Source: Minisyncoccota bacterium
Lineage (GTDB): Bacteria; Patescibacteriota; Minisyncoccia; Phycocordibacterales; UBA6065
Assembly: GCA_035546035.1 (NCBI GenBank)
Contig: DASZXC010000008.1
Span: 252,265 to 316,264, forward strand
Length of the DNA stretch: 64,000 nt
Reading direction: 5' to 3'
Shown one piece after another: positions 32,999-47,700 of the stretch. How positions within the stretch are numbered: position 1 is the first letter of the stretch; each line of letters opens with the position of its first letter. The notes under the pieces are model-generated. The model was not told where the DNA came from, searched no databases, and saw only the letters and a program-made list of their open reading frames with translations. Both the position numbers and the translations under genes were made by a program.

Positions 32999-34264
32999 AT
33001 GAAAGACGGTTTGTTTACATTTAAATACAAGATTGAGGGTATTAAATGTGAAAATGTTGAAAATATTTTTATAACCATTATTAGCGGTTCTTCAAGTTTT
33101 ACAGATTATCTGGTCTTTTATTCAGAAAACCCGCCGCTTGTAACTGATTCACCTCTTTATCTCATTGAAGAGACTAAGACTGGTGATAGTGAGAGCCGTA
33201 ACACGGCAGCGTATCAACGTTCTTCAAAATTTGTCTATGCCAGCTTCTTTTATCCCAAGGTTCCTAAAATCATGTTGTACAGCCTAAGGGTTGCGCAGAG
33301 AAAGGAATCGACCTCAACTTCTGTCTTCGGTACAAAACTTCTGGCGACGCTAGGTGTTGAGATTTTGGGCAGAATATTACAGAAAGACGCCTACTCAGCA
33401 TTTTCAAATATTGATGAATTGATCGAGCTTAAGAATGAAATGTCCCTTCCTCATTACGGGCTTGCTGTGCGGATAAATAAGGTAGGGGATGTAATTAAAA
33501 TATCTGCAAGGCTTGAAAAATCGGGCTATCTTTCTCATGATCCCAATATCGGTATGACGACAGTGATCAGTGCGTGTCTTAGAAAATTAGGTTGGAAGGG
33601 CCGCATCGTCATAACTGATCATGGCTTGGCGAGTCAAAAAAATGTAGGAGTAAGAAACAAATTTATTGCTATTGCCAATCAGCTCGGTGTTGAGCTCGAA
33701 AATCTAACCATACCCAGGGTTTCTCTTCATGGAGAATATTGGAAGGTTGAGGCAAACAAGGAGAAAATAGGAACAATTTTTACTAGTATTCTCTGCGAAG
33801 AATTTACGGACTCGGTTGCTATCTATGAAAATCATGGAGGCTGTGAAAGGGGCTATTTTATTTCTGAAAAAAATAAAGAAAATATAGAATATCTTGCTGT
33901 CCCAAAATTTTCAGATAGAGAAAAATACAAGGCGGGGGACAAAAGTTATATCATTTCTATTCCCGATCTAGTCCTCTACGATAGAAAAAGAGACATAATC
34001 ATTAATGCGGAAGGCAAGGTTTTTGCAAAGCGGGAGGAGGGTTATAAGGAAATAGGTGGGTTTGACTCGTTCGAAGATAAATTTATTAAAAAGTATTATC
34101 CGGGCTCAGAAATTTCAAGGACGCTCATACTTTCAGGCAGTAAAGACGAGGCGATTGATAATCCAATTACAGGCTTACTCTTAAATCAAGACGGATTAAT
34201 CGTCTTGGGGGAAAAGACACCTCTCTTGTTCAAGGAGGCTGTGGCGAATCTACTTTCTTTGTAG
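32999..34264 (+). CDS. Putative Type II restriction endonuclease of low-GC R-M island (two PD-(D/E)xK-like motifs)
   Basis: Low-GC coding; motifs TDSPLYLIEETK and IPDLVLYDRKRDIIINAEGK; convergent with and overlapping 3-prime end of methyltransferase gene; start at first ATG inside AT-rich region rather than the extended ORF start 32774. Confidence 0.4.
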   Translation: MKDGLFTFKYKIEGIKCENVENIFITIISGSSSFTDYLVFYSENPPLVTDSPLYLIEETKTGDSESRNTAAYQRSSKFVYASFFYPKVPKIMLYSLRVAQRKESTSTSVFGTKLLATLGVEILGRILQKDAYSAFSNIDELIELKNEMSLPHYGLAVRINKVGDVIKISARLEKSGYLSHDPNIGMTTVISACLRKLGWKGRIVITDHGLASQKNVGVRNKFIAIANQLGVELENLTIPRVSLHGEYWKVEANKEKIGTIFTSILCEEFTDSVAIYENHGGCERGYFISEKNKENIEYLAVPKFSDREKYKAGDKSYIISIPDLVLYDRKRDIIINAEGKVFAKREEGYKEIGGFDSFEDKFIKKYYPGSEISRTLILSGSKDEAIDNPITGLLLNQDGLIVLGEKTPLLFKEAVANLLSL

Positions 34265-35314
34265 TAAATATAGCTGTTCTTTTATATGCTTTTTTGTCGC
34301 AGACTCCCCTTTGTTATTGCTTTTGAAACGGAGATAGTTGATTTCCTTCATTTGAACGCTTCCAAACTCACTAAGTATTTTTAGAATCTCTGCCTGAGGC
34401 ATAATACCTTCAGAGTTGTAACTAAGAAGTAGGCATTTGTATTTTGCTTCACTCACTACAGTTTTTAATGCTCTGAGTGCACTATTTGGATTACAGAATT
34501 CTGACTTCTGTTCACTGTAATCTCGCATACCCGTAATCCCCTTTATCGCTGGATTGTCATATCTCGCAATTGTCTCCAGTAAATGATAATTTGGTGCATA
34601 CTGTCTTTCGTTATATGGAGGATCAAGGTAGAGAACATCAACCTTTAAGTCCGATATTAAATCCATGCTATTTTTGTTATAGACACGGTAATTTCTCTTC
34701 CCGGTGTAAAGCTTTATAGGTTTTATCTCGAATCTTTTCAAAGATCTCGGGTCGTATTTTTTTAAGAAAGCGGCATATACACCAGAAATATTTGCGTAAA
34801 AGGGTACACTTTCGATCAAACATGCCAGTAGCACAAAATATTCATTTTCTGAAATTATTTTTTCTTTTCTCCATAATTCAATCTGTTGGCGTTGGGCATC
34901 AATTTTCTCCGCGTTCTTTCCAGTTAAATATTTACGTATGAATTGCTCGTTCCGCGTTCCTTCTTCAGTGTAGTTTTCATATATAAACCCTTTGATACCG
35001 CCCAAATTATTAAGATAGAACAAGACCTGTTCTAGGGAATTTGAGAATAGAGCCTCTGATGCGGTTGTTCCGATCCTGTTTAAAAGCCTCGCAAATCTAA
35101 CCTCCTCATTATTTTCTATATAAGCTTTCTGTAATACGAAAGAGAAGTACATTAGATCCGATGAAAGGACAGAGTAACCCTTTTCCTTAAAGAATCTACC
35201 TACGTTTGATGTACCGGAAAAAAAGTCACAAAAGGTGCCGTCTTGGAATCCTAAATCAACGACGGTTGAGTGTATTTTCTCCAGGAGCTTTTCTTTGTTT
35301 CCGATGAATCTCAT
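34250..35314 (-). CDS. N6-adenine DNA methyltransferase (Dam/D12-class, DPPY motif)
   Basis: N-terminal MRFIGNKEKLL, FxGxG region and catalytic VLYLDPPYNE; start overlaps stop of upstream methyltransferase (TAATG). Confidence 0.8.
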   Translation of the reverse strand: MRFIGNKEKLLEKIHSTVVDLGFQDGTFCDFFSGTSNVGRFFKEKGYSVLSSDLMYFSFVLQKAYIENNEEVRFARLLNRIGTTASEALFSNSLEQVLFYLNNLGGIKGFIYENYTEEGTRNEQFIRKYLTGKNAEKIDAQRQQIELWRKEKIISENEYFVLLACLIESVPFYANISGVYAAFLKKYDPRSLKRFEIKPIKLYTGKRNYRVYNKNSMDLISDLKVDVLYLDPPYNERQYAPNYHLLETIARYDNPAIKGITGMRDYSEQKSEFCNPNSALRALKTVVSEAKYKCLLLSYNSEGIMPQAEILKILSEFGSVQMKEINYLRFKSNNKGESATKKHIKEQLYLLQRK

Positions 35315-36423
35315 TAGTAGTTGGTGATTAATACCTCAGACACTTTTCCTCTTTTGGTTGTATTTGAGTTGAGAGAACGACTAGATTGTACCGTATAAAT
35401 GTTGAAATCTTTATAGAGATCTCTTATGAACTTACAATCCGAATTCGAAAGCATTACATAAGCGCCTTTTTTATGTAATTCAGTGACGGTTTTTCTGAGT
35501 CTTATTTGATCTTCCTCGTAAAACCTTTCTTTGGTATACCTCGTAAAGTCTGAAGTCTTCGAGATCGGGTAGTAGGGAGGATCAAAAAAAACGAGGTCCT
35601 TTTTTGCTACATTTTTCGTTGCTTCCTCAAAATCAGAACATTCCAAAGAAGTCTTCTTGAGGGTTTTTGAAGCTTTTAGAATTGTCTCTGCGTCGCATAT
35701 AACCTTATCTAGTGAACTACCAATAGGGACATTAAATTGCCCTTTTCCATTTACTCTGTAAATACCATTAAAACAGGTTTGGTTTAAATAAATTGCCCGG
35801 GCGGCTATTTCATAGTTTCTGAAATGGCTAAAAAGATTGTAATTTCTATCCAAATTTCTTATGTGCTCGTAGAGTTTTTCGGAGTGTCTTTCTTTTAGTT
35901 TTTTCAGGGTATCAATTACTAGTTCAGGAAAATCACGGACAGCTTTATAGGTTTCAAGTAATTCTCGGTTATTGTCATTGAGAAATGATTTTTCTGGATT
36001 AAGCTCAAAGAATATCGCGCCCCCTCCAAGGAAGGGCTCAAAATAGCGATTATATTTTTTTGGGAAGTAATTTTTGTATTGTGCAACCATGCCTCTCTTA
36101 CCTCCAACCCACTGTAAGAAAGGTTTAGGACGATTTTTTTCGTGATTTTCTGCCTCTCTCTGTGAATTGTTGGTTAACGGAAATTTCTCGAGTTCCTTTT
36201 TTAAGATGGATTCTTTAAAAGAGATTAAATTCGATGGGTCACATTGTAGATAGTTACAAAGGGTATCGATGGTCGTCAGATCTATTCTTGTTGTTTTCTT
36301 GTTAGCAATTGCGTGTCCTTGCTGGTAACTAAGACCAGTATCTTTACATAATTTATAAAGAGTTTTCCCCTCCCTCTCTAAAATTTTCTTTAGGTTTATT
36401 TCTATACTCATTATGTTCTTCAT
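35314..36423 (-). CDS. HTH(XRE)-fused N6-adenine DNA methyltransferase (Dam-like, DPPY)
   Basis: N-terminal HTH (LYKLCKDTGLSYQQGHAIANKK), Dam motif I FLQWVGGKRGM / FEPFLGGGAIFFEL, catalytic VFFDPPYYP. Confidence 0.8.
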   Translation of the reverse strand: MKNIMSIEINLKKILEREGKTLYKLCKDTGLSYQQGHAIANKKTTRIDLTTIDTLCNYLQCDPSNLISFKESILKKELEKFPLTNNSQREAENHEKNRPKPFLQWVGGKRGMVAQYKNYFPKKYNRYFEPFLGGGAIFFELNPEKSFLNDNNRELLETYKAVRDFPELVIDTLKKLKERHSEKLYEHIRNLDRNYNLFSHFRNYEIAARAIYLNQTCFNGIYRVNGKGQFNVPIGSSLDKVICDAETILKASKTLKKTSLECSDFEEATKNVAKKDLVFFDPPYYPISKTSDFTRYTKERFYEEDQIRLRKTVTELHKKGAYVMLSNSDCKFIRDLYKDFNIYTVQSSRSLNSNTTKRGKVSEVLITNY

Positions 36424-36532: not shown

Positions 36533-37225
36533 ATGCTCAAACGCACCTGGTTCCCTGGCCTCGTCGCCCTTATAATCGTCTTCTGTGTCTACTGGTTCGG
36601 AATACGCGATAGTGGCCCGTCTACGACCCTCGATCCTTACAACCAAAACCCTGCCGCGCAGAATCCAGGTATCTCCAACAGCCAAATCCAAACTCCGACC
36701 CAGCAAGAGACTCCTTCTACAAGCGATATAAAAACCATCATGGATAACATCACGACCGCGACCCTTCACACGAATAAAGGCGACATCACGATCCAGTTCA
36801 ACCCGGAGACGCCGATCACCGCGGCTAATTTCGTGAAGCTCGCCAAGGCCGGCTTCTATAACGGCACGAAATTCCACCGCGTCATCAAGGGCTTCATGGA
36901 CCAGGGCGGCGATCCTTTTTCCAAGGACGATTCGCTCATGGCTCGATGGGGAACGGGCGGTCCCGGCTATCAGTTCGAGGACGAGATCGGTCCTGATAAC
37001 AAGAACGATGTCGGCACCATCGCCATGGCCAATGCCGGTCCTAATACCAATGGCAGCCAGTTCTTCCTGAATGCGGCGGCGAATAATTTCCTCGACGACA
37101 AGCACACCGTATTCGGCAAGGTGACCAAGGGCCTCGACATCGTTATGGCCATCAACAATGTGCAGACCGATGAAAACGACCGACCTGTGTCGCCGGTCGT
37201 GATTGAGAGCGTCGATTTGAAATAA
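36533..37225 (+). CDS. ppiB: Peptidyl-prolyl cis-trans isomerase, cyclophilin type (membrane-anchored/secreted)
   Basis: N-terminal TM, cyclophilin motifs FHRVIKGFMDQGGDP, GTIAMANAGPNTNGSQFF, HTVFGKV. Confidence 0.9.
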   Translation: MLKRTWFPGLVALIIVFCVYWFGIRDSGPSTTLDPYNQNPAAQNPGISNSQIQTPTQQETPSTSDIKTIMDNITTATLHTNKGDITIQFNPETPITAANFVKLAKAGFYNGTKFHRVIKGFMDQGGDPFSKDDSLMARWGTGGPGYQFEDEIGPDNKNDVGTIAMANAGPNTNGSQFFLNAAANNFLDDKHTVFGKVTKGLDIVMAINNVQTDENDRPVSPVVIESVDLK

Positions 37226-37255
37226 GGCGGCGCATTTACTGATAACGCTGAAATA

Positions 37256-37522
37256 ATGGCCGCATATTATCTCTATATGGTCTCCTGCGCCGACGGCACG
37301 CTCTATACCGGCATCACGACCGATCTGGATCGAAGGATGGCCGAGCACAATGCGGGCGGCAAAGCGGGCGCGAAGTACACGCATGCCCGCCTGCCGGTCC
37401 AATTGGCGTATTCAAAGAAATATAAAGACCGCTCGTCCGCATCCATCGCCGAAGCGGCTCTGAAGAAGCTTTCCCGCGAGGAAAAGATGGAGATGATAGC
37501 GGTGGAGGCTTTGATAGGGTAG
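37256..37522 (+). CDS. GIY-YIG nuclease-family protein (UPF0213-like)
   Basis: YYLYMVSCADGTLYTGITTDLDRRMAEHN GIY-YIG core. Confidence 0.75.
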   Translation: MAAYYLYMVSCADGTLYTGITTDLDRRMAEHNAGGKAGAKYTHARLPVQLAYSKKYKDRSSASIAEAALKKLSREEKMEMIAVEALIG

Positions 37523-37547
37523 GCGTTCGCCTGGACATAAGAGAGAA

Positions 37548-37580
37548 AAAAGCCCCGCGTTCGTACGAACGCGGGGCTTT
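37548..37580. terminator. Bidirectional intrinsic terminator between convergent genes
   Basis: AAAGCCCCGCGTTCG-ta-CGAACGCGGGGCTTT flanked by A-run and T-run. Confidence 0.75.
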
Positions 37581-37596
37581 GGATTTTTAAGCGCTT

Positions 37597-38064
37597 TCAG
37601 ATCAATTCCCAGGTCTTCTTCTCGCAATCGATGGCGATGCCGTGACCGCGGTCGAATTGCTGCCTCGGGATGGTGGGCATCTTCAACACCACCGATCCGA
37701 ATGAATGGGGAAGCTGTTCCGCCATTTCGAGATGAGTGATCACGACGAGGGTTTCCATGTTCTCGCGGCAGCCGTCTATCGCCGCAAGCGCATGGGACAC
37801 GAAGCAATTCCTTTCGTCAGAGTAGAGCCCAGGGAATGTCTTGGTCCGGAATATGCTGCCGGTGCCGATCTGGATCCAGTAAGCGGTGCGGATCGCCCGC
37901 AGGGCTTCCGACGAGATCACGATAGTTTTTCCCGGTCTGGAATTGAACCGCTCCTTGATGAGCTTGCCTAATTCGACGGCTCGGTCATTGCCTGCTTGGG
38001 TGAGAAACTTGCCTGAATCGTCGGCGTCGCAATGCCGGAGGATGATGAGTCTTTTGAGGTCCAT
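37597..38064 (-). CDS. Histidine phosphatase superfamily protein (SixA-like)
   Basis: RHG-type motif LIILRHCDA near N-terminus, about 155 aa; start at ATG 38064. Confidence 0.65.
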   Translation of the reverse strand: MDLKRLIILRHCDADDSGKFLTQAGNDRAVELGKLIKERFNSRPGKTIVISSEALRAIRTAYWIQIGTGSIFRTKTFPGLYSDERNCFVSHALAAIDGCRENMETLVVITHLEMAEQLPHSFGSVVLKMPTIPRQQFDRGHGIAIDCEKKTWELI

Positions 38065-38152
38065 ACAAGAGCGTTGTTTATCCTGTATTACCATTTGAGC
38101 CTTTTATTGTCCATTAGTATGGCTCTATCACTGGTTATCCACAGGCTTATCC

Positions 38153-38181
38153 TTGCAGGTGAACCTTAGTTCACTTATACT
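38153..38181 (+). promoter_or_regulatory. SOS-type promoter: TTGCAG-N17-TATACT with LexA operator GAAC-N4-GTTC (Cheo-box type) occupying the spacer
   Basis: TTGCAG 38153-38158; gtGAACcttaGTTCac 38159-38174; TATACT 38176-38181; 27 nt upstream of ORF 38208 which precedes lexA. Confidence 0.65.
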
Positions 38182-38207
38182 TATCGCATAACGTTTAGCG
38201 CCCGCGA

Positions 38208-38429
38208 ATGGGCGAGATAACCAAAACGAATATGAGCAAATACGAATTGCGAAAGACGATCAAAAGGGAATTAAAAGACCTCAACTGGAAGATAGACATG
38301 AAGATAGTCCGCGGCCTTCCATACAGGACCGAGGCCCGCAGGCACAAATTCCTCATCATGCAGCTCAACAGGCTTTCGAAGAGCTCTACGGGCATTCTTT
38401 CGGCATTCTTCGATCGCGTAGCGGCGTAA
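38208..38429 (+). CDS. Small basic hypothetical protein (73 aa) under putative LexA control
   Basis: ORF directly downstream of SOS-box promoter and upstream of lexA; Lys/Arg-rich. Confidence 0.4.
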   Translation: MGEITKTNMSKYELRKTIKRELKDLNWKIDMKIVRGLPYRTEARRHKFLIMQLNRLSKSSTGILSAFFDRVAA

Positions 38430-38469
38430 GGCGGGGCTGATTATTGTAGAAAGAGGGTATAATTCATCC

Positions 38470-39036
38470 ATGATCGAAACCTATAAGAAAAAGATCATAG
38501 CCTTCTACGAACGGCATAAGCGCATGCCGGGGTATAAGGAATTGATGGATATCACGGGTTTCAAATCCAAGAATGCGGTCTACAAGATGATCAACAAGCT
38601 CGTCGAGCTCGGCGTTATTACGAAGGACGGCGAGGGCAGGATCGCCCTTGTGCGATCGGGGAGCGAGATACCCATGCTCGGTCTTGTCGAAGCCGGTATC
38701 CCGACGGTGGCGGAAGAATCCGATCTCGATGTCCTGAATCTCAACACCTATCTCGTTGAGGACAGGGAGAGTTCGTACCTGCTCGAGGTCAAGGGCGACT
38801 CTATGATAGAAGAGGGTATAAGGGAAGGTGACCTCGTGGTTGCGGAGAAGCGCGGCGATGCGAAGGAAGGCGATATCGTCATCGCCGAAGTGGATGGAGG
38901 CTGGACGATGAAATACTACCGAAAGAAGGGCAGCCAGATCTATCTAGAGCCTGCCAACAAGAAATACAAGCCGATCTATCCCGAATACGATCTCAAGATC
39001 GCGGCTATCGTGAGGGGAGTGATACGCAAATACTAG
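38470..39036 (+). CDS. lexA: LexA repressor (S24 peptidase)
   Basis: N-terminal winged HTH, cleavage-site region VEAGIP, catalytic Ser in VKGDSM and Lys in AIVRGVIRKY context; TATAAT 6 nt upstream of ATG. Confidence 0.85.
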   Translation: MIETYKKKIIAFYERHKRMPGYKELMDITGFKSKNAVYKMINKLVELGVITKDGEGRIALVRSGSEIPMLGLVEAGIPTVAEESDLDVLNLNTYLVEDRESSYLLEVKGDSMIEEGIREGDLVVAEKRGDAKEGDIVIAEVDGGWTMKYYRKKGSQIYLEPANKKYKPIYPEYDLKIAAIVRGVIRKY

Positions 39037-39037
39037 T

Positions 39038-39421
39038 ATGCAGGAATTCGAGCTTATGGCGGCGGTCGCATACGATCGACTGCCGGAATGGGTGCGCACC
39101 AGAATGAAGAACGTCGCCATAACGATCGAAGATTTCGTAGATACCGATACTGTCCGTGATATGGGCCTTGAAGACCATATGGGACTTCTCGGTCTCTATA
39201 AAGGCGTGCCGCAGACCGAACGGACGATTGCCGCAGGATTCGAGATGCCTGATACGATCGTCCTCTACCGCATGCCGATACTGGAAGAGGCTTCGGATTC
39301 TGGAAAACCGATCGAAGATGTCTTATTCGAGACTCTTTGGCACGAGATCGCGCATCATTTTGGCCTCACCGAAGAGGACGTCGAGAAAAGGGAAAGCGAA
39401 GAGTTCGGCGAGCCTGTATAA
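39038..39421 (+). CDS. Metallopeptidase-family protein (DUF1025-like, HExxH)
   Basis: LWHEIAHHFG zinc-binding motif, about 127 aa, 2 nt after lexA stop. Confidence 0.7.
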   Translation: MQEFELMAAVAYDRLPEWVRTRMKNVAITIEDFVDTDTVRDMGLEDHMGLLGLYKGVPQTERTIAAGFEMPDTIVLYRMPILEEASDSGKPIEDVLFETLWHEIAHHFGLTEEDVEKRESEEFGEPV

Positions 39422-39428
39422 TCTGCCT

Positions 39429-39815
39429 ATGGAAAATACAACTCATACGAAAACGATCTGGGCATGGCTTATTATCGCGATCCTTGTGGTCCTCGCATAT
39501 GTTTCTTTTCATATGATTAAGAGAGGCGGTGATATCGATGTCCCGCCGGGCTTCGTCGGTCCTAAAAACGACATCGTGAATGACGTCGTATTCGCGTGCA
39601 CGGCAGGAAAAAGCATCCATGCCGTATTTCATACGACTAATACGGTCGACCTCGTCCTTTCTGACGGCCGCGCTCTCTCTATTCCGCAGGTCATATCTGC
39701 ATCCGGCGCTCGCTATGCCGACGCCGACGAATCATTCGTCTTCTGGAACAAGGGCAACACAGCGTTCATACAAGAAAAAGGAGCGACGACGTTCGCAGGC
39801 TGCGCTATCAAATAG
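39429..39815 (+). CDS. MliC-family membrane-bound lysozyme inhibitor-like protein
   Basis: N-terminal TM/signal, conserved SASGARYA and FWNKG...E pattern of MliC family; ORF-track entry 39156..39815 is a 5-prime over-extension. Confidence 0.65.
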   Translation: MENTTHTKTIWAWLIIAILVVLAYVSFHMIKRGGDIDVPPGFVGPKNDIVNDVVFACTAGKSIHAVFHTTNTVDLVLSDGRALSIPQVISASGARYADADESFVFWNKGNTAFIQEKGATTFAGCAIK

Positions 39816-39818
39816 CTG

Positions 39819-41168
39819 CTAGGCCTTTTTAGCAGCATCTGTTCCCGCGACCCATCCCGTAGACCAGCAGAGCTGGAGGCTGTATCCGCCCGAAGGCCTT
39901 TCGATATCTAGAACGTCTCCGACCAGATACAGATTCGGCACGATGCGCGATTTCATAGTCTTGAAATCGACTTCTTCGAGCTTTACGCCGCCCGATGCGA
40001 CGATGGCTTTCTCTTTGCCGAGGAATCCGATGGGCGTCATGCGCATGTCTTTCAGGATCTTTACGAGGCGAAGGCGCTCTTCGCGCGTAACGATATTGAT
40101 CTCTTTTTCAGGGTCGAGCTGCGCCAATTCGATGACGGCCGAAGACATCGCCGGCGTGACGAGGTCTTTGATCGCATTCTTTACCTTCTTATTGGAATTA
40201 GCCGTAAACGATTCCTGCGCTTTTTTATCCAAAGCTGCATTGTCGAAATCGGGCATTATGTCGAGCGAAAGCTCTACTTTGTCGCCGGGCTGGGCGTACT
40301 GGAGCGATTCGCGGACGTCCTTCGAGAAATTGATAGCCAGAGGGCCGCTGATGCCGAAATGGGCGAATACCATGCGGCCGACGAGCGATTTTCCCCGCGA
40401 TTCTTTGCCGTTCTCTTTTACATTTTCCGCGCCTTGGCCAGCAGCCCGTTTTTCGATGATCGTCAGTTTCGCGTGCTGATTGGAAACGCCCGATAGCTCG
40501 CGCACCCATTTTTCGCCGATCTTTATGGGAACGAGGGCGGCATCAGGCTCGACGATGGTATGGCCCGCTTTGCGGAGCCATTCGAATCCCTCGCCCGTTG
40601 AACCGGTTTCAGGATGCGATGTGCCGCCAGTCGCGATGATGTATGAATCAGCGACGATGGTTTCGATCACTTTCGCGCCGCTTTTACTTTCGCCGCGCAT
40701 CACGTTCACGCCCACGATCTTGCCGTCCTGGATGTGAAGCCCTTTGGCCGAGACGCCTGACGCGACTTCGACCTTAGTATCCTTCATATATTTGACGAGC
40801 ACGTCCCACACCGATTTTGCGCTGTTGGATAGAGGGAAGACGCGACCTTCGTTTTCGACTTTGGTCGGCATATTGCGGCCGTTGAAAAAAGCGAGCGACT
40901 CGGCGACCGCATGCTGCGCGAAGGTCGAGAACAGGAATTTGCCCTTGCCCTTGAGCTTGCCGAGGAACGCGCGGATATCAGGCGTATCGTTCGTGACGTT
41001 GCATCGCCCGCCGCCGGTGATGAGGAGCTTCTTGCCGAGACCCTCGTTCTTTTCGATCAGAACGACCGATGCGCCCGATTCAGCCGCGCGCCCGGCCGCC
41101 ATCATGCCCGCCGGGCCTCCGCCGATGACGCAGACGTCATATCTTTCCTTAAAAGCGCCTTTCTTCAT
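39819..41168 (-). CDS. HI0933-family FAD-dependent oxidoreductase (BaiN/aminoacetone oxidase-like)
   Basis: YDVCVIGGGPAGMMAA, ITGGGRCNVTN hallmark, C-terminal GDVLD motif. Confidence 0.85.
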   Translation of the reverse strand: MKKGAFKERYDVCVIGGGPAGMMAAGRAAESGASVVLIEKNEGLGKKLLITGGGRCNVTNDTPDIRAFLGKLKGKGKFLFSTFAQHAVAESLAFFNGRNMPTKVENEGRVFPLSNSAKSVWDVLVKYMKDTKVEVASGVSAKGLHIQDGKIVGVNVMRGESKSGAKVIETIVADSYIIATGGTSHPETGSTGEGFEWLRKAGHTIVEPDAALVPIKIGEKWVRELSGVSNQHAKLTIIEKRAAGQGAENVKENGKESRGKSLVGRMVFAHFGISGPLAINFSKDVRESLQYAQPGDKVELSLDIMPDFDNAALDKKAQESFTANSNKKVKNAIKDLVTPAMSSAVIELAQLDPEKEINIVTREERLRLVKILKDMRMTPIGFLGKEKAIVASGGVKLEEVDFKTMKSRIVPNLYLVGDVLDIERPSGGYSLQLCWSTGWVAGTDAAKKA

Positions 41169-44743: not shown

Positions 44744-47700
44744 ATGCAAATCCTTCTGAAGCTTAGGAAATCTCACGTTAAAGCGCTTTCCGCAGCGCTC
44801 ATTTCTGCTGTCCTGGCGCAGCCTTTCATGGTGCTCATGCCGACCCAGGCGTATGCCGACAGCGCATCGGCGGGGCAGGTATACACATTCAGCAATCCCG
44901 GCACGACCAGTTGGAATATTCCGGTCAACGCTACCCAGATCCGCATCAAGGCGTGGGGCGGCGGCGGAGGCGGCGGTAACGGCGCGAAGACGGGCAACCA
45001 CAATATCTCGGGCTTCGGCGGCGGCGCGGGAGCGTATGCCTCGGCCGATTATTCCGTTTCAGCTCCGAACGACTCGCTTACGATCACGGTCGGCGCGGGT
45101 GGCACGGCATATCAGACCGGATCTATAGCCCTCGGCGGCTCGAATAGCGAGATCCGAACGTCGGGCGGCACCATCATCGCAGGCGCGGGCGGCGGCGGCG
45201 CGGGCGTCTCTGGCGTAGACGGCGGAACCCAGGGATCCGGCAGCGACGGCCAGTCGGGCCAAGGAACCGGCGGCGGGCTTCCGGGTACGACAAATAACGG
45301 CGCGGGTGGCCATGGCGGCACTGCATATGCAGGCGATGTATTCCTTAACGGCGGCGACGGAGGCCCTTATGCTTTCGATGGCGATAACCCCTACGCGTCT
45401 GACGGCGGGTCTTCTCCGTTCGGCGGCGCGGGCGGTTCGCGAGGACGCTGCGGACGCGACGGCGCATGCCCAGGCAGCCAGCCTGGAAGCTCATTGGCCC
45501 AGGACGGCGCATTTCCTGGCGGCGGCGGAGGCGGTTCCGATGTCGGCACCGGCGGCTATGGCGCGAACGGCCAGGTCACGATCGAGATCCTCTCGACGTC
45601 CGGTCCCGCAGACCAGGCTCCTATCGGTTTCCTCGATTCCGTATCGTGTTCGAGCATAAACGGCTGGACTCTCGATCCTGATACGCCGGCGATCTCGAAT
45701 ACCTATCACATCTATATGGACGGCCCTGCTGGTTCAGGAACGGTCATCGCCGGTCCTACGGCAAGCGACCCTCGCGGCGATGTGAACAATGCTACCGGCT
45801 ATGCGGGCGATCATGGATTCAGCTACCCAACTCCTGATGTTTTGAAGGACGGTGGAACTCATCAGATCTACGTCTACGGCATTAATACGGATACTATCGA
45901 TCTGAATCATACGAATACGCTTCTTAACAACAGCCCTATGACGCTTTCGGGCTGTACTCTGCCTAGTAATCCCGGCGGCGGCAATACCAATAACGGCCTC
46001 TCCGTCTCGATCAGCGCGACGCCTTCGAGCGTGACGATCCCGAACGGCGGATCGGCTCCGGTCTCTATAACCTCGACCGCTGCCTATACCTCGAATACCA
46101 TCACTCATCATGGCCTTGAGGTTCGTTTCAACGGCGGCGCATGGCAGAACGCGGGCGCATGGCCGATTCCTGTCGCGAACAGCGCGCAGGTCTCTGACGC
46201 GTCGTTCACCACGCTCGACCTGACCCAGGCGGGATCGTATGATTTCCGCGCATATGCTTCTGCCGACGGCGGGGCGAATTACGTATATTCCTCTATCCAA
46301 ACCGTATCGGCTACGACGGGCAACGGAGGCGGCGGTAATAATAGCCAGGGCGTAAGCGTCGACCTTTCCGTCGCTTCCTCGACCGTTTCGATCCCGAACG
46401 GCGGCTCCGTCCAGCTTTCTATGGTCTCGGCCGCGACGGTCACCGGCGGTACGGCTCTTACTCAGCATGGACTCGAAATGCGCCTCAACGGCGGCGCATG
46501 GATGAATGCGGGAGCATGGAACGGACTGGTCGCGAATGCGCCGCAAGCGACCGATGCGTCATTCTCGGCTCTCAATATCAATCAGCCTGGCGCCTATGAA
46601 TTCCGCGCATATGCATCGATCGACGGGACGAATTACGTCTATTCTTCGATCCAGCCTGTTTTAGCGGCCGGAGGTCCTGGTCCCGGCACGCCTCTTTCCG
46701 TATCCGTTTCCGTAAATCCGTCGTCTGTTTCCATTCCGAACGGCGGTTCCGTCGCGGTTTCCGTCACCTCGACCGCAAGCTATGGCGGCAGCTCTATCAC
46801 GCATCACGGGCTCGAGATAAGCTATAACGGCGGCGCATGGATGAATGCGGGAGCATGGCCGAATCCTGTTCCGAACGTTGCCCGAACCTCGGACGCTTCT
46901 TTTGTCGCCCTTAATTTGAGCCAGGTGGGCACCTATGATATCCGCGCCTATACGTCCACTGACGGCGGCGTTACCTATGTGTATTCTGCTCCGCAGACCG
47001 TAACGGCGACCGTCGGCGGCGGAGGTGGCAATAACGGCACGACGACGCTTTCGGTCACGATGACGGCGACCCCGACCGCGGTCATCATCCCTCCTTCGGG
47101 CGGCGGTGCCACCATTTCTATAACCTCGACGGCTAACGTCCCGTCAGGTGCTACCCTGACCCAGCATGGTTTGGAGATGAGCGTGAACGGCGGCGCATGG
47201 CAGAACGCGGGCGCATGGAATAATCCTCTTCCGAACACGGCCCGCATTACCGATGCGACGTTCCCTATGCTCACGCTCACGATCCCGGCCGTGTACACTT
47301 TCCGTGCATATGCTTCGACTGACAATGGCGCTACCTATGTCTATTCGCCGGTCCAGACGGTTTCCGCGGAACCTCTTTCCGTAGACATCTCCGTCAATCC
47401 GACATCTATCACGTTCACGTCGGCAGGACAGATTATTCCTGTTTCGATCACGTCGACCGCGACGTATACCGGCACGAACGGCGCTCTTTCGCACCACGGC
47501 CTCGAGATGCGCCTCAACGGCGGCGCATGGCAGAACGCGGGCGCATGGAACCCCGCGTTGCCGAACGTTCAGCGCTCGACCGACGCGTCGTTCACCGCGC
47601 TCGACCTGACCCAGGCGGGATCGTATGATTTCCGCGCATATGCTTCTGCCGACAACGGCGCTACCTATGTATACTCTCCGACCCAGACCGTGACGGCGAC

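Follow-up and report, generated by a model that had tools for sequence, protein, structure and literature searches.

We analysed a 64-kb stretch of DNA (the window, taken at its full length) from contig DASZXC010000008.1 of an uncultivated Minisyncoccota bacterium, a member of the Patescibacteria, and found that its lexA gene is the second gene of a transcript whose promoter carries a perfect 16-bp palindrome between the -35 and -10 hexamers and whose first gene encodes a basic protein of 65 amino acids (Table 1). The arrangement is conserved in related loci, and the palindrome is very likely the operator of a promoter that LexA represses itself. A DnaA-box-like element upstream of the -35 hexamer is nearly as constant. 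We put at roughly 0.8 the probability that this regulatory architecture is correctly read and that the small protein is truly a partner of lexA under LexA control.

The core promoter can be read directly from the window. A 17-bp spacer separates the -35 hexamer TTGCAG from the -10 hexamer TATACT, and 16 of these 17 bp are occupied by gtGAACcttaGTTCac, a perfect palindrome with six paired bases on either side of a 4-bp centre (GTGAAC-CTTA-GTTCAC). Transcription would start near 38188. The original prediction had placed the two hexamers and the palindrome at these positions, with six plus six paired bases, and both points were borne out. It had also spoken of a textbook SOS promoter, which overstates the -35 hexamer of this sigma-70-type promoter. 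The core GAAC-N4-GTTC is not significant by itself, with two copies in the 64 kb against 1.04 expected; the second lies at 46738, inside an open reading frame (ORF) of 1335 amino acids. The full GTGAAC-N4-GTTCAC occurs only once in the window.

Related loci were collected by three routes: four through a profile of the small ORF, 80 from metagenomes through an alignment of LexA (63-86% LexA identity) and six through exact-protein look-ups. Promoter counts given below refer to 65 non-redundant orthologous promoters for which Patescibacteria genomes and metagenomes provided sufficient upstream sequence. Every one of them has a perfect GTGAAC-N4-GTTCAC between TTGxxx and TAxxxT, while the four central bases vary freely. 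The spacer measures 17 bp in 48 promoters and 18 bp in 17, and the -35 hexamer is TTGCAG in 29 and TTGACG in 13, with other variants in the rest (Table 1). All of the 79 perfect operators found in 402.6 kb of related loci lie no more than 200 nt upstream of the small ORF, with none elsewhere. Two additional 20-kb loci each contain exactly one operator and one DnaA-like box, both at the promoter of the small gene and lexA. Promoter, palindrome and the order of small gene and lexA were invariant across all related loci examined, and because the gene 3' of lexA is not conserved, the conserved unit is the promoter, the small gene and lexA.

The gene after the small ORF had been predicted to be lexA, and its sequence identifies the product as a genuine LexA. 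It scores 120.2 bits against the NCBIfam LexA equivalog TIGR00498 (cutoff 110.95), and its residues Ala75-Gly76, Ser111 and Lys148 align to Ala84-Gly85, Ser119 and Lys156 of Escherichia coli LexA, with the cleavage site VEA75-G76IP lining up with VAA84-G85EP. The cleavage-site and Ser/Lys residues are invariant in five orthologues. Bacillus subtilis LexA shares the S24 self-cleaving domain, the Ala-Gly site and the Ser/Lys dyad. As a separate observation, the closest related locus, L001, has at 636-2228 an ORF of about 530 codons (measured stop to stop) with a second, weaker match (68.5 bits) to the hidden Markov model (HMM) built from the LexA alignment; it may encode another S24-domain protein a few kilobases from lexA.

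A palindrome that fills a promoter spacer in this way is, as far as sequence can tell, the signature of a site where a repressor blocks RNA polymerase. The promoter of lexA itself is the site bound by nearly all LexA proteins. LexA is by far the likeliest binder because of the GAAC-N4-GTTC core and its position at lexA, and these two features, together with the conservation in all 65 promoters, strongly support the predicted LexA operator. The Cheo-box consensus of B. subtilis is CGAAC-N4-GTTCG (PMC9700832). As in Cheo-type autoregulation, the GAAC-N4-GTTC inverted repeat stands at the lexA promoter and overlaps the polymerase site; the flanking C and G are absent, however, all 65 sites reading GTGAAC...GTTCAC, so that the flanks are GT...AC and not C...G. 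The Patescibacteria promoters also differ from that of B. subtilis in having an invariant, perfect 16-mer exactly in the spacer and in placing lexA second in the transcript. An alternative is that some other regulator, such as the small protein, binds the palindrome in place of LexA and that the GAAC-N4-GTTC form is coincidental. In its favour, Pfam LexA_DNA_bind gave no match to the N-terminal domain of the LexA product at E <= 0.01. It is nonetheless very improbable, since the palindrome shares its core with the Gram-positive LexA box and lies at a lexA promoter, and since the TIGR00498 match spans residues 13-187, including the winged-helix region, and the E. coli LexA alignment starts at residue 20.

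That LexA represses its own gene through a GAAC-N4-GTTC box is standard, and the operator alone is not new. A LexA-binding motif for Patescibacteria was reported in 2017 in a study of their SOS response by Sanchez-Osuna, Barbe & Erill (Environ Microbiol 19:3465), which is cited in PMC7739468 and, among papers reporting LexA motifs, in PMC8565304; the LexA box of this superphylum is therefore probably already known.

The original prediction contained nothing on the second conserved element of the promoter. When the related promoters were aligned, GTTATCCACAG proved to be conserved upstream of the -35 hexamer, where the window has TTATCCACA, the DnaA-box consensus (PMC8203912). With at most one mismatch and in one orientation, TTATCCACA is found in 64 of the 65 promoters (40 perfect copies and 24 with one mismatch), compared with 4.4% of random 90-nt windows. 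Relative to the start of the operator, the box begins at -22 to -25 in 51 promoters, at -33 to -35 in seven and at -15 to -17 in six, with none in between; these three classes are about 10 bp apart and thus fit a face-of-the-helix constraint. Nor is TTATCCACA a general promoter feature, because the 64-kb window has only this one perfect copy; one-mismatch copies occur there at chance level. From this we infer that DnaA would bind TTATCCACA at the promoter of the lexA operon. Joint control by DnaA and LexA is known for E. coli uvrB and recN, where a DnaA box and a LexA box likewise occur in one promoter region (PMC6015884, PMC8203912). In contrast to those cases, the promoter here is that of lexA itself, and the box is conserved class-wide with fixed orientation and helical phasing.

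The flanks of the related loci hold 12 other perfect copies of TTATCCACA, against about 2.5 expected. Six of these, often two in tandem, precede a promoter-like region and the long leader of rpoB (L046 at about 4155, L060 at about 3594, L071 at about 3253, L073 at about 2634, L076 at about 1145 and L077 at about 4077). The rpoB-associated boxes are preceded by a shared AAAGTCAA context and stand upstream of promoter-like TTGACA elements, and the leader behind them is about 250-450 nt long by ORF coordinates. The same factor may thus have a second target here.

The first gene of the transcript had been described as an unannotated, Lys/Arg-rich ORF of 73 amino acids. It is indeed a real, basic and conserved gene, but its conserved start is the ATG at 38232 (MSKYELRK...) and not the codon at 38208, which gives a product of 65 amino acids, and this product is identical to one already listed at NCBI as hypothetical protein VHE10_03015 (Candidatus Paceibacterota bacterium). 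Its 13 close homologues, all from Patescibacteria, start with MSK followed by Y or F. A profile search of 1.84 billion representative proteins at E <= 0.001 returned 284 clusters at 50% identity, all of 44-147 amino acids; the named members come from Paceibacterota, Parcubacteria, Taylorbacteria and Zambryskibacteria only, all are called hypothetical and lack Pfam domains. Searched with an HMM of the small protein, 82 of 86 loci gave a match directly upstream of lexA and on its strand; in the four loci without a match, the contig ends less than 225 nt upstream of lexA. In 46 of 65 non-redundant loci the small gene and lexA overlap or are separated by at most 15 nt.

The codon-level evidence indicates that the small gene is real and under purifying selection. 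The ratio of nonsynonymous to synonymous substitution rates (dN/dS) is 0.03-0.11 wherever dS is unsaturated, entropy is highest at third codon positions, and seven residues (M1, N18, D22, I25, G28, Y31 and H38) are invariant in 73 diverse members, so the ORF of the original prediction is conserved as a protein. These data, together with the 284 clusters and the confident core of the structural model, effectively refute the idea that it is a leader peptide or a chance ORF. That idea could appeal to the missing database family and to the missing Shine-Dalgarno-like sequence, which we found at the small gene in 0 of 71 cases; at lexA, however, it is present in only 5 of 65, so its absence is a trait of the lineage. 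We rejected the absence of a Shine-Dalgarno sequence as a sign of non-translation for the same reason.

The AlphaFold2 model of the small protein consists of two antiparallel helices joined at G-L-P-Y, with a predicted local distance difference test score of 80 overall and above 90 in the core. A variable basic linker and a short tail follow, and 65 of 72 members end in a hydrophobic residue. Together, the basic body and the hydrophobic C-terminus are reminiscent of proteins targeted to the membrane periphery or of C-terminal degradation tags. No transmembrane segment was found in 72 members, where the highest 19-residue Kyte-Doolittle mean is 1.19 and none exceeds 1.6. Pfam (E <= 0.01), NCBIfam (E <= 1) and PHROGs gave no significant match to the protein, and a sequence-profile search of the PDB gave two matches, both non-significant and unrelated. 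The protein is predicted to be a soluble, basic helical hairpin of an uncharacterised family. Its net charge of +10 (family median, +8) would also suit a general binder of nucleic acids, associated with the nucleoid, RNA or the ribosome and linked to lexA only by co-expression under stress, and the hairpin is like that of some ribosomal and RNA-binding proteins, with L29 chains among the weak Foldseek matches of the model. Since those matches are not significant, and since a housekeeping role would not be expected behind a perfect repressor site everywhere, nor in one Patescibacteria class only, we regard a general binder as improbable.

In parts of the clade, the transcripts of the small gene or lexA appear to be leaderless. 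The distance from the operator to the ATG of the small gene is 50-83 nt in 55 promoters, whereas in four (L038, L057, L079 and L080/L086) it is 29-30 nt, which puts the ATG 6 nt past the -10 hexamer and implies a leaderless mRNA for the small gene. A possible -10 hexamer of a second promoter precedes lexA in the window (Table 1). In 20 of 65 loci (31%), compared with a background of 3.5%, a hexamer that matches TATAAT at no fewer than five of six positions, and mostly perfectly, has its last base 4-9 nt (6-8 nt in most cases) ahead of the lexA ATG. In some loci the hexamer overlaps the final Leu codon and the stop codon of the small gene. No -35 hexamer was found to go with it. We tentatively suggest that an internal promoter may produce a leaderless lexA transcript that is independent of the operator. 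We also considered a hairpin in the 5' untranslated region, with stem GCGCCCGCGAATGGGCG, which looked compensatory in four sequences; it was rejected, as its fold was no better than that of shuffled sequences (z = -1.0), and it is also missing in L002 and in the leaderless loci.

In the mechanism that we propose, a LexA dimer would bind the palindrome in the spacer and block initiation by RNA polymerase. DNA damage would make LexA undergo self-cleavage stimulated by RecA and so release the promoter, upon which the small protein and new LexA would be made together, the new LexA closing the operon again. DnaA at TTATCCACA would most likely modulate the same promoter, so that the operon could read both replication status and DNA damage. 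The small protein would be an SOS-induced effector that serves as a checkpoint, in the cytoplasm or at the membrane periphery, and stops division or replication until the DNA is repaired.

That the small protein is the SOS checkpoint effector of the lineage is the reading that we favour, at somewhat less than even odds. We favour it because the LexA-controlled transcript has no invariant passenger but the small gene, because the possible internal -10 hexamer could supply LexA and so leave only the small gene strictly dependent on damage, because a basic body with a hydrophobic tail on a variable linker would suit a protein sent to the membrane periphery or tagged for degradation, and because small effectors adjacent to lexA are the rule in Gram-positive bacteria (PMC6851548). 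The SOS division inhibitors of Gram-positives are typically small, fast-evolving and encoded beside lexA, and in several of them the C-terminus is involved in the turnover of the protein (PMC6851548). YneA, SosA, ChiZ and DivS resemble the small protein in being the products of small, lineage-specific, LexA-controlled genes beside lexA. They are, however, encoded divergently from lexA, have a single transmembrane helix and often, as in YneA and ChiZ, a LysM domain, and work outside the membrane, whereas the small gene here is co-directional with lexA, upstream of it, and encodes a predicted soluble hairpin. Because the defining transmembrane helix, with or without LysM, is absent, the small protein is not a member of this class. 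Neither Pfam (E <= 0.01) nor NCBIfam (E <= 1) matched it to the SulA family. The original prediction had suggested a functional analogue of division inhibitors such as YneA or SulA. Of this, the small LexA-controlled gene beside lexA stands, and a division inhibitor is plausible by analogy of position only.

The main rival is that the small protein is an accessory factor of LexA (or RecA), made in fixed ratio with it and tuning operator binding or self-cleavage. Strict co-occurrence with lexA in the same order and on the same strand argues for this, as do the short gaps and overlaps between the two genes, which suggest coupled translation. By sequence spacing, the invariant polar residues N18, D22, Y31 and H38 would fall on matching helix faces, as would fit a fixed partner, whether protein or DNA, and the strong positive charge would suit added contacts with DNA. 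Small co-regulators of LexA are moreover an established category (PMC9700832, PMC11332147). Within it, gp7 of phage GIL01 acts on Bacillus LexA and DdrR of Acinetobacter on UmuDAb, each by binding the repressor, and like the small protein they are small (DdrR is about 9 kDa) and confined to one lineage, the DdrR gene lying beside that of its repressor (PMC9700832, PMC11332147). The small gene differs from both in being chromosomal and co-directional, as gp7 is phage-borne and DdrR is divergently transcribed. Against an accessory factor, the small protein showed no similarity in sequence or fold to gp7 (PDB 6N7O), to DdrR or to anything else, 6N7O being absent from the Foldseek PDB matches listed (the best 50 of 101 at E <= 10). 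It is not obvious what a co-repressor would do with the conserved hydrophobic C-terminal tail on its variable linker, and if the internal lexA promoter is real, the ratio of the two proteins would not be fixed. On balance we think an accessory factor rather unlikely, though closer to the effector that we prefer than any other alternative.

A further point of comparison is Sda of B. subtilis. This replication-stress checkpoint protein is a very small helical hairpin, its promoter is under direct control through DnaA boxes, and its C-terminal residues direct its proteolysis. The likeness lies in the helical hairpin, the DnaA-box promoter and the coupling of replication trouble to a cell-cycle decision (see also PMC8203912). 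There is, however, no homology between the two proteins; Sda targets sporulation kinases, which Paceibacterota lack, and it is neither controlled by LexA nor linked to lexA.

Several results weigh against the picture of a LexA- and DnaA-controlled effector. The -35 hexamer is weak, and a simple sigma-70 scanner did not flag the promoter of the lexA operon, because TTGCAG agrees with TTGACA at only three of six positions. Neither the 64-kb window nor about 440 kb of flanks contained a second operator, but these regions have no recA, uvrA or dnaA either; motif greps of the window and the related loci found none of these three genes, the ten largest ORFs of the window include no classical SOS gene, and relaxed operator scans of the flanks gave five core matches, about the chance number, none of them in a promoter context. 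With no second operator or SOS gene nearby, the case for LexA as the binder comes from the type of the motif and its position. The DnaA-box reading is by identity to the consensus, and the lineage's own dnaA and oriC are not among the fetched DNA. As for the small protein, its tail is only modestly amphipathic (median hydrophobic moment, 0.36, compared with 0.24 in shuffled tails, whose 95th percentile is 0.46), and Foldseek searches of the PDB returned generic hairpins only, none at E <= 0.001. It has neither a transmembrane segment nor a LysM domain; its family is apparently more conserved relative to LexA than staphylococcal SosA is, in an informal comparison on different scales (PMC6851548); and the tight co-directional coupling looks more like that of a stoichiometric partner.

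Table 1. Positions of the promoter elements and genes of the lexA operon within the window.
Feature	Position	Strand	Remarks
DnaA-box consensus TTATCCACA	38135..38143	+	9 nt upstream of the -35 hexamer; absent from the original prediction
-35 hexamer TTGCAG	38153..38158	+	TTGCAG, TTGACG, TTGCAA, TTGACT or TTGACA at the same position in relatives
Very likely LexA operator, 16-bp palindrome	38159..38174	+	perfect in 65/65 non-redundant promoters
-10 hexamer TATACT	38176..38181	+	in relatives, TATACT in 40/65 and TATAAT in 19/65
Gene for 65-amino acid basic protein, predicted helical hairpin	38232..38429	+	conserved start; uncharacterised Paceibacterota family
Possible internal -10 hexamer TATAAT	38458..38463	+	6 nt before the lexA ATG
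lexA, 188 amino acids	38470..39036	+	TIGR00498 above cutoff; Peptidase_S24, E-value 1.7e-25
Zincin_1 (former DUF1025) HExxH protein	39038..39421	+	Pfam PF06262, E-value 5.3e-28
MliC-like protein (lysozyme-inhibitor fold), N-terminal hydrophobic segment	39429..39815	+	Pfam PF09864, E-value 5.4e-13

The genes 3' of lexA vary from locus to locus, with 38 Pfam families among 41 proteins encoded downstream. A few of these are repair proteins, for example IMS/DinB, a methylpurine DNA glycosylase and a PIF1 helicase. The original prediction had the operon continue with an HExxH metallopeptidase 2 nt after lexA. A gene for an HExxH protein of the Zincin_1 family does follow and is probably co-transcribed with lexA in the source genome, but its ATG lies 1 nt past the lexA stop codon, and the gene is found 3' of lexA in only 4 of 56 related loci. 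The MliC-like gene, the last of the same-strand cluster, occurs among the related loci only in the closest relative, L001. We therefore rejected both as conserved members of the operon. In a more distant member of the family, L087 (3001-5844), an extra 100-amino acid gene lies between the small gene and lexA, and a gene for a fusion of an RNase_T exonuclease with UvrC/Cho comes directly after lexA.

On the other side of the promoter, a gene for 165 amino acids at 37597-38094 on the minus strand runs divergently from the lexA operon. Its product has no match in Pfam, NCBIfam or PHROGs but contains an LRHCDA stretch that is phosphatase-like in look. The gene is absent from all related loci, and in L001 a GIY-YIG gene abuts the promoter directly. 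Between the convergent GIY-YIG and 165-amino acid genes of the window, at 37549-37580, is a perfect hairpin with a 14-bp stem (AAAGCCCCGCGTTCGTACGAACGCGGGGCTTT) and T-runs on both strands, probably a bidirectional terminator. This hairpin drew sub-threshold matches to small RNAs in Rfam, and a scan of 37000-41000 at E <= 1 gave no Rfam matches other than these. Further upstream, at 34250-36423 on the minus strand, two adjacent ORFs of 354 and 369 amino acids have DPPY motifs and, judged by their translations, the look of N6-adenine DNA methyltransferases. Their amino-acid composition looks AT-rich compared with that of their neighbours, and the pair may be a mobile restriction-modification remnant.

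What is new here, beyond the operator, is the obligatory and hitherto unannotated small partner of lexA, the helically phased DnaA-box-like element in 64 of 65 promoters and the apparently leaderless variants. Patescibacteria have tiny genomes and are mostly unculturable, and very little is known of their cell-cycle control. It is possible, if somewhat doubtful, that a single promoter reads both LexA and DnaA and that the small protein founds a new family of SOS checkpoint effectors or LexA cofactors, possibly serving as the only damage checkpoint of such minimal genomes. If the small protein is a cofactor of LexA, it would be the first chromosomal one conserved across a class. The short promoter and the 65-amino acid protein together make a compact, synthesisable target that can be approached without culturing the organism.

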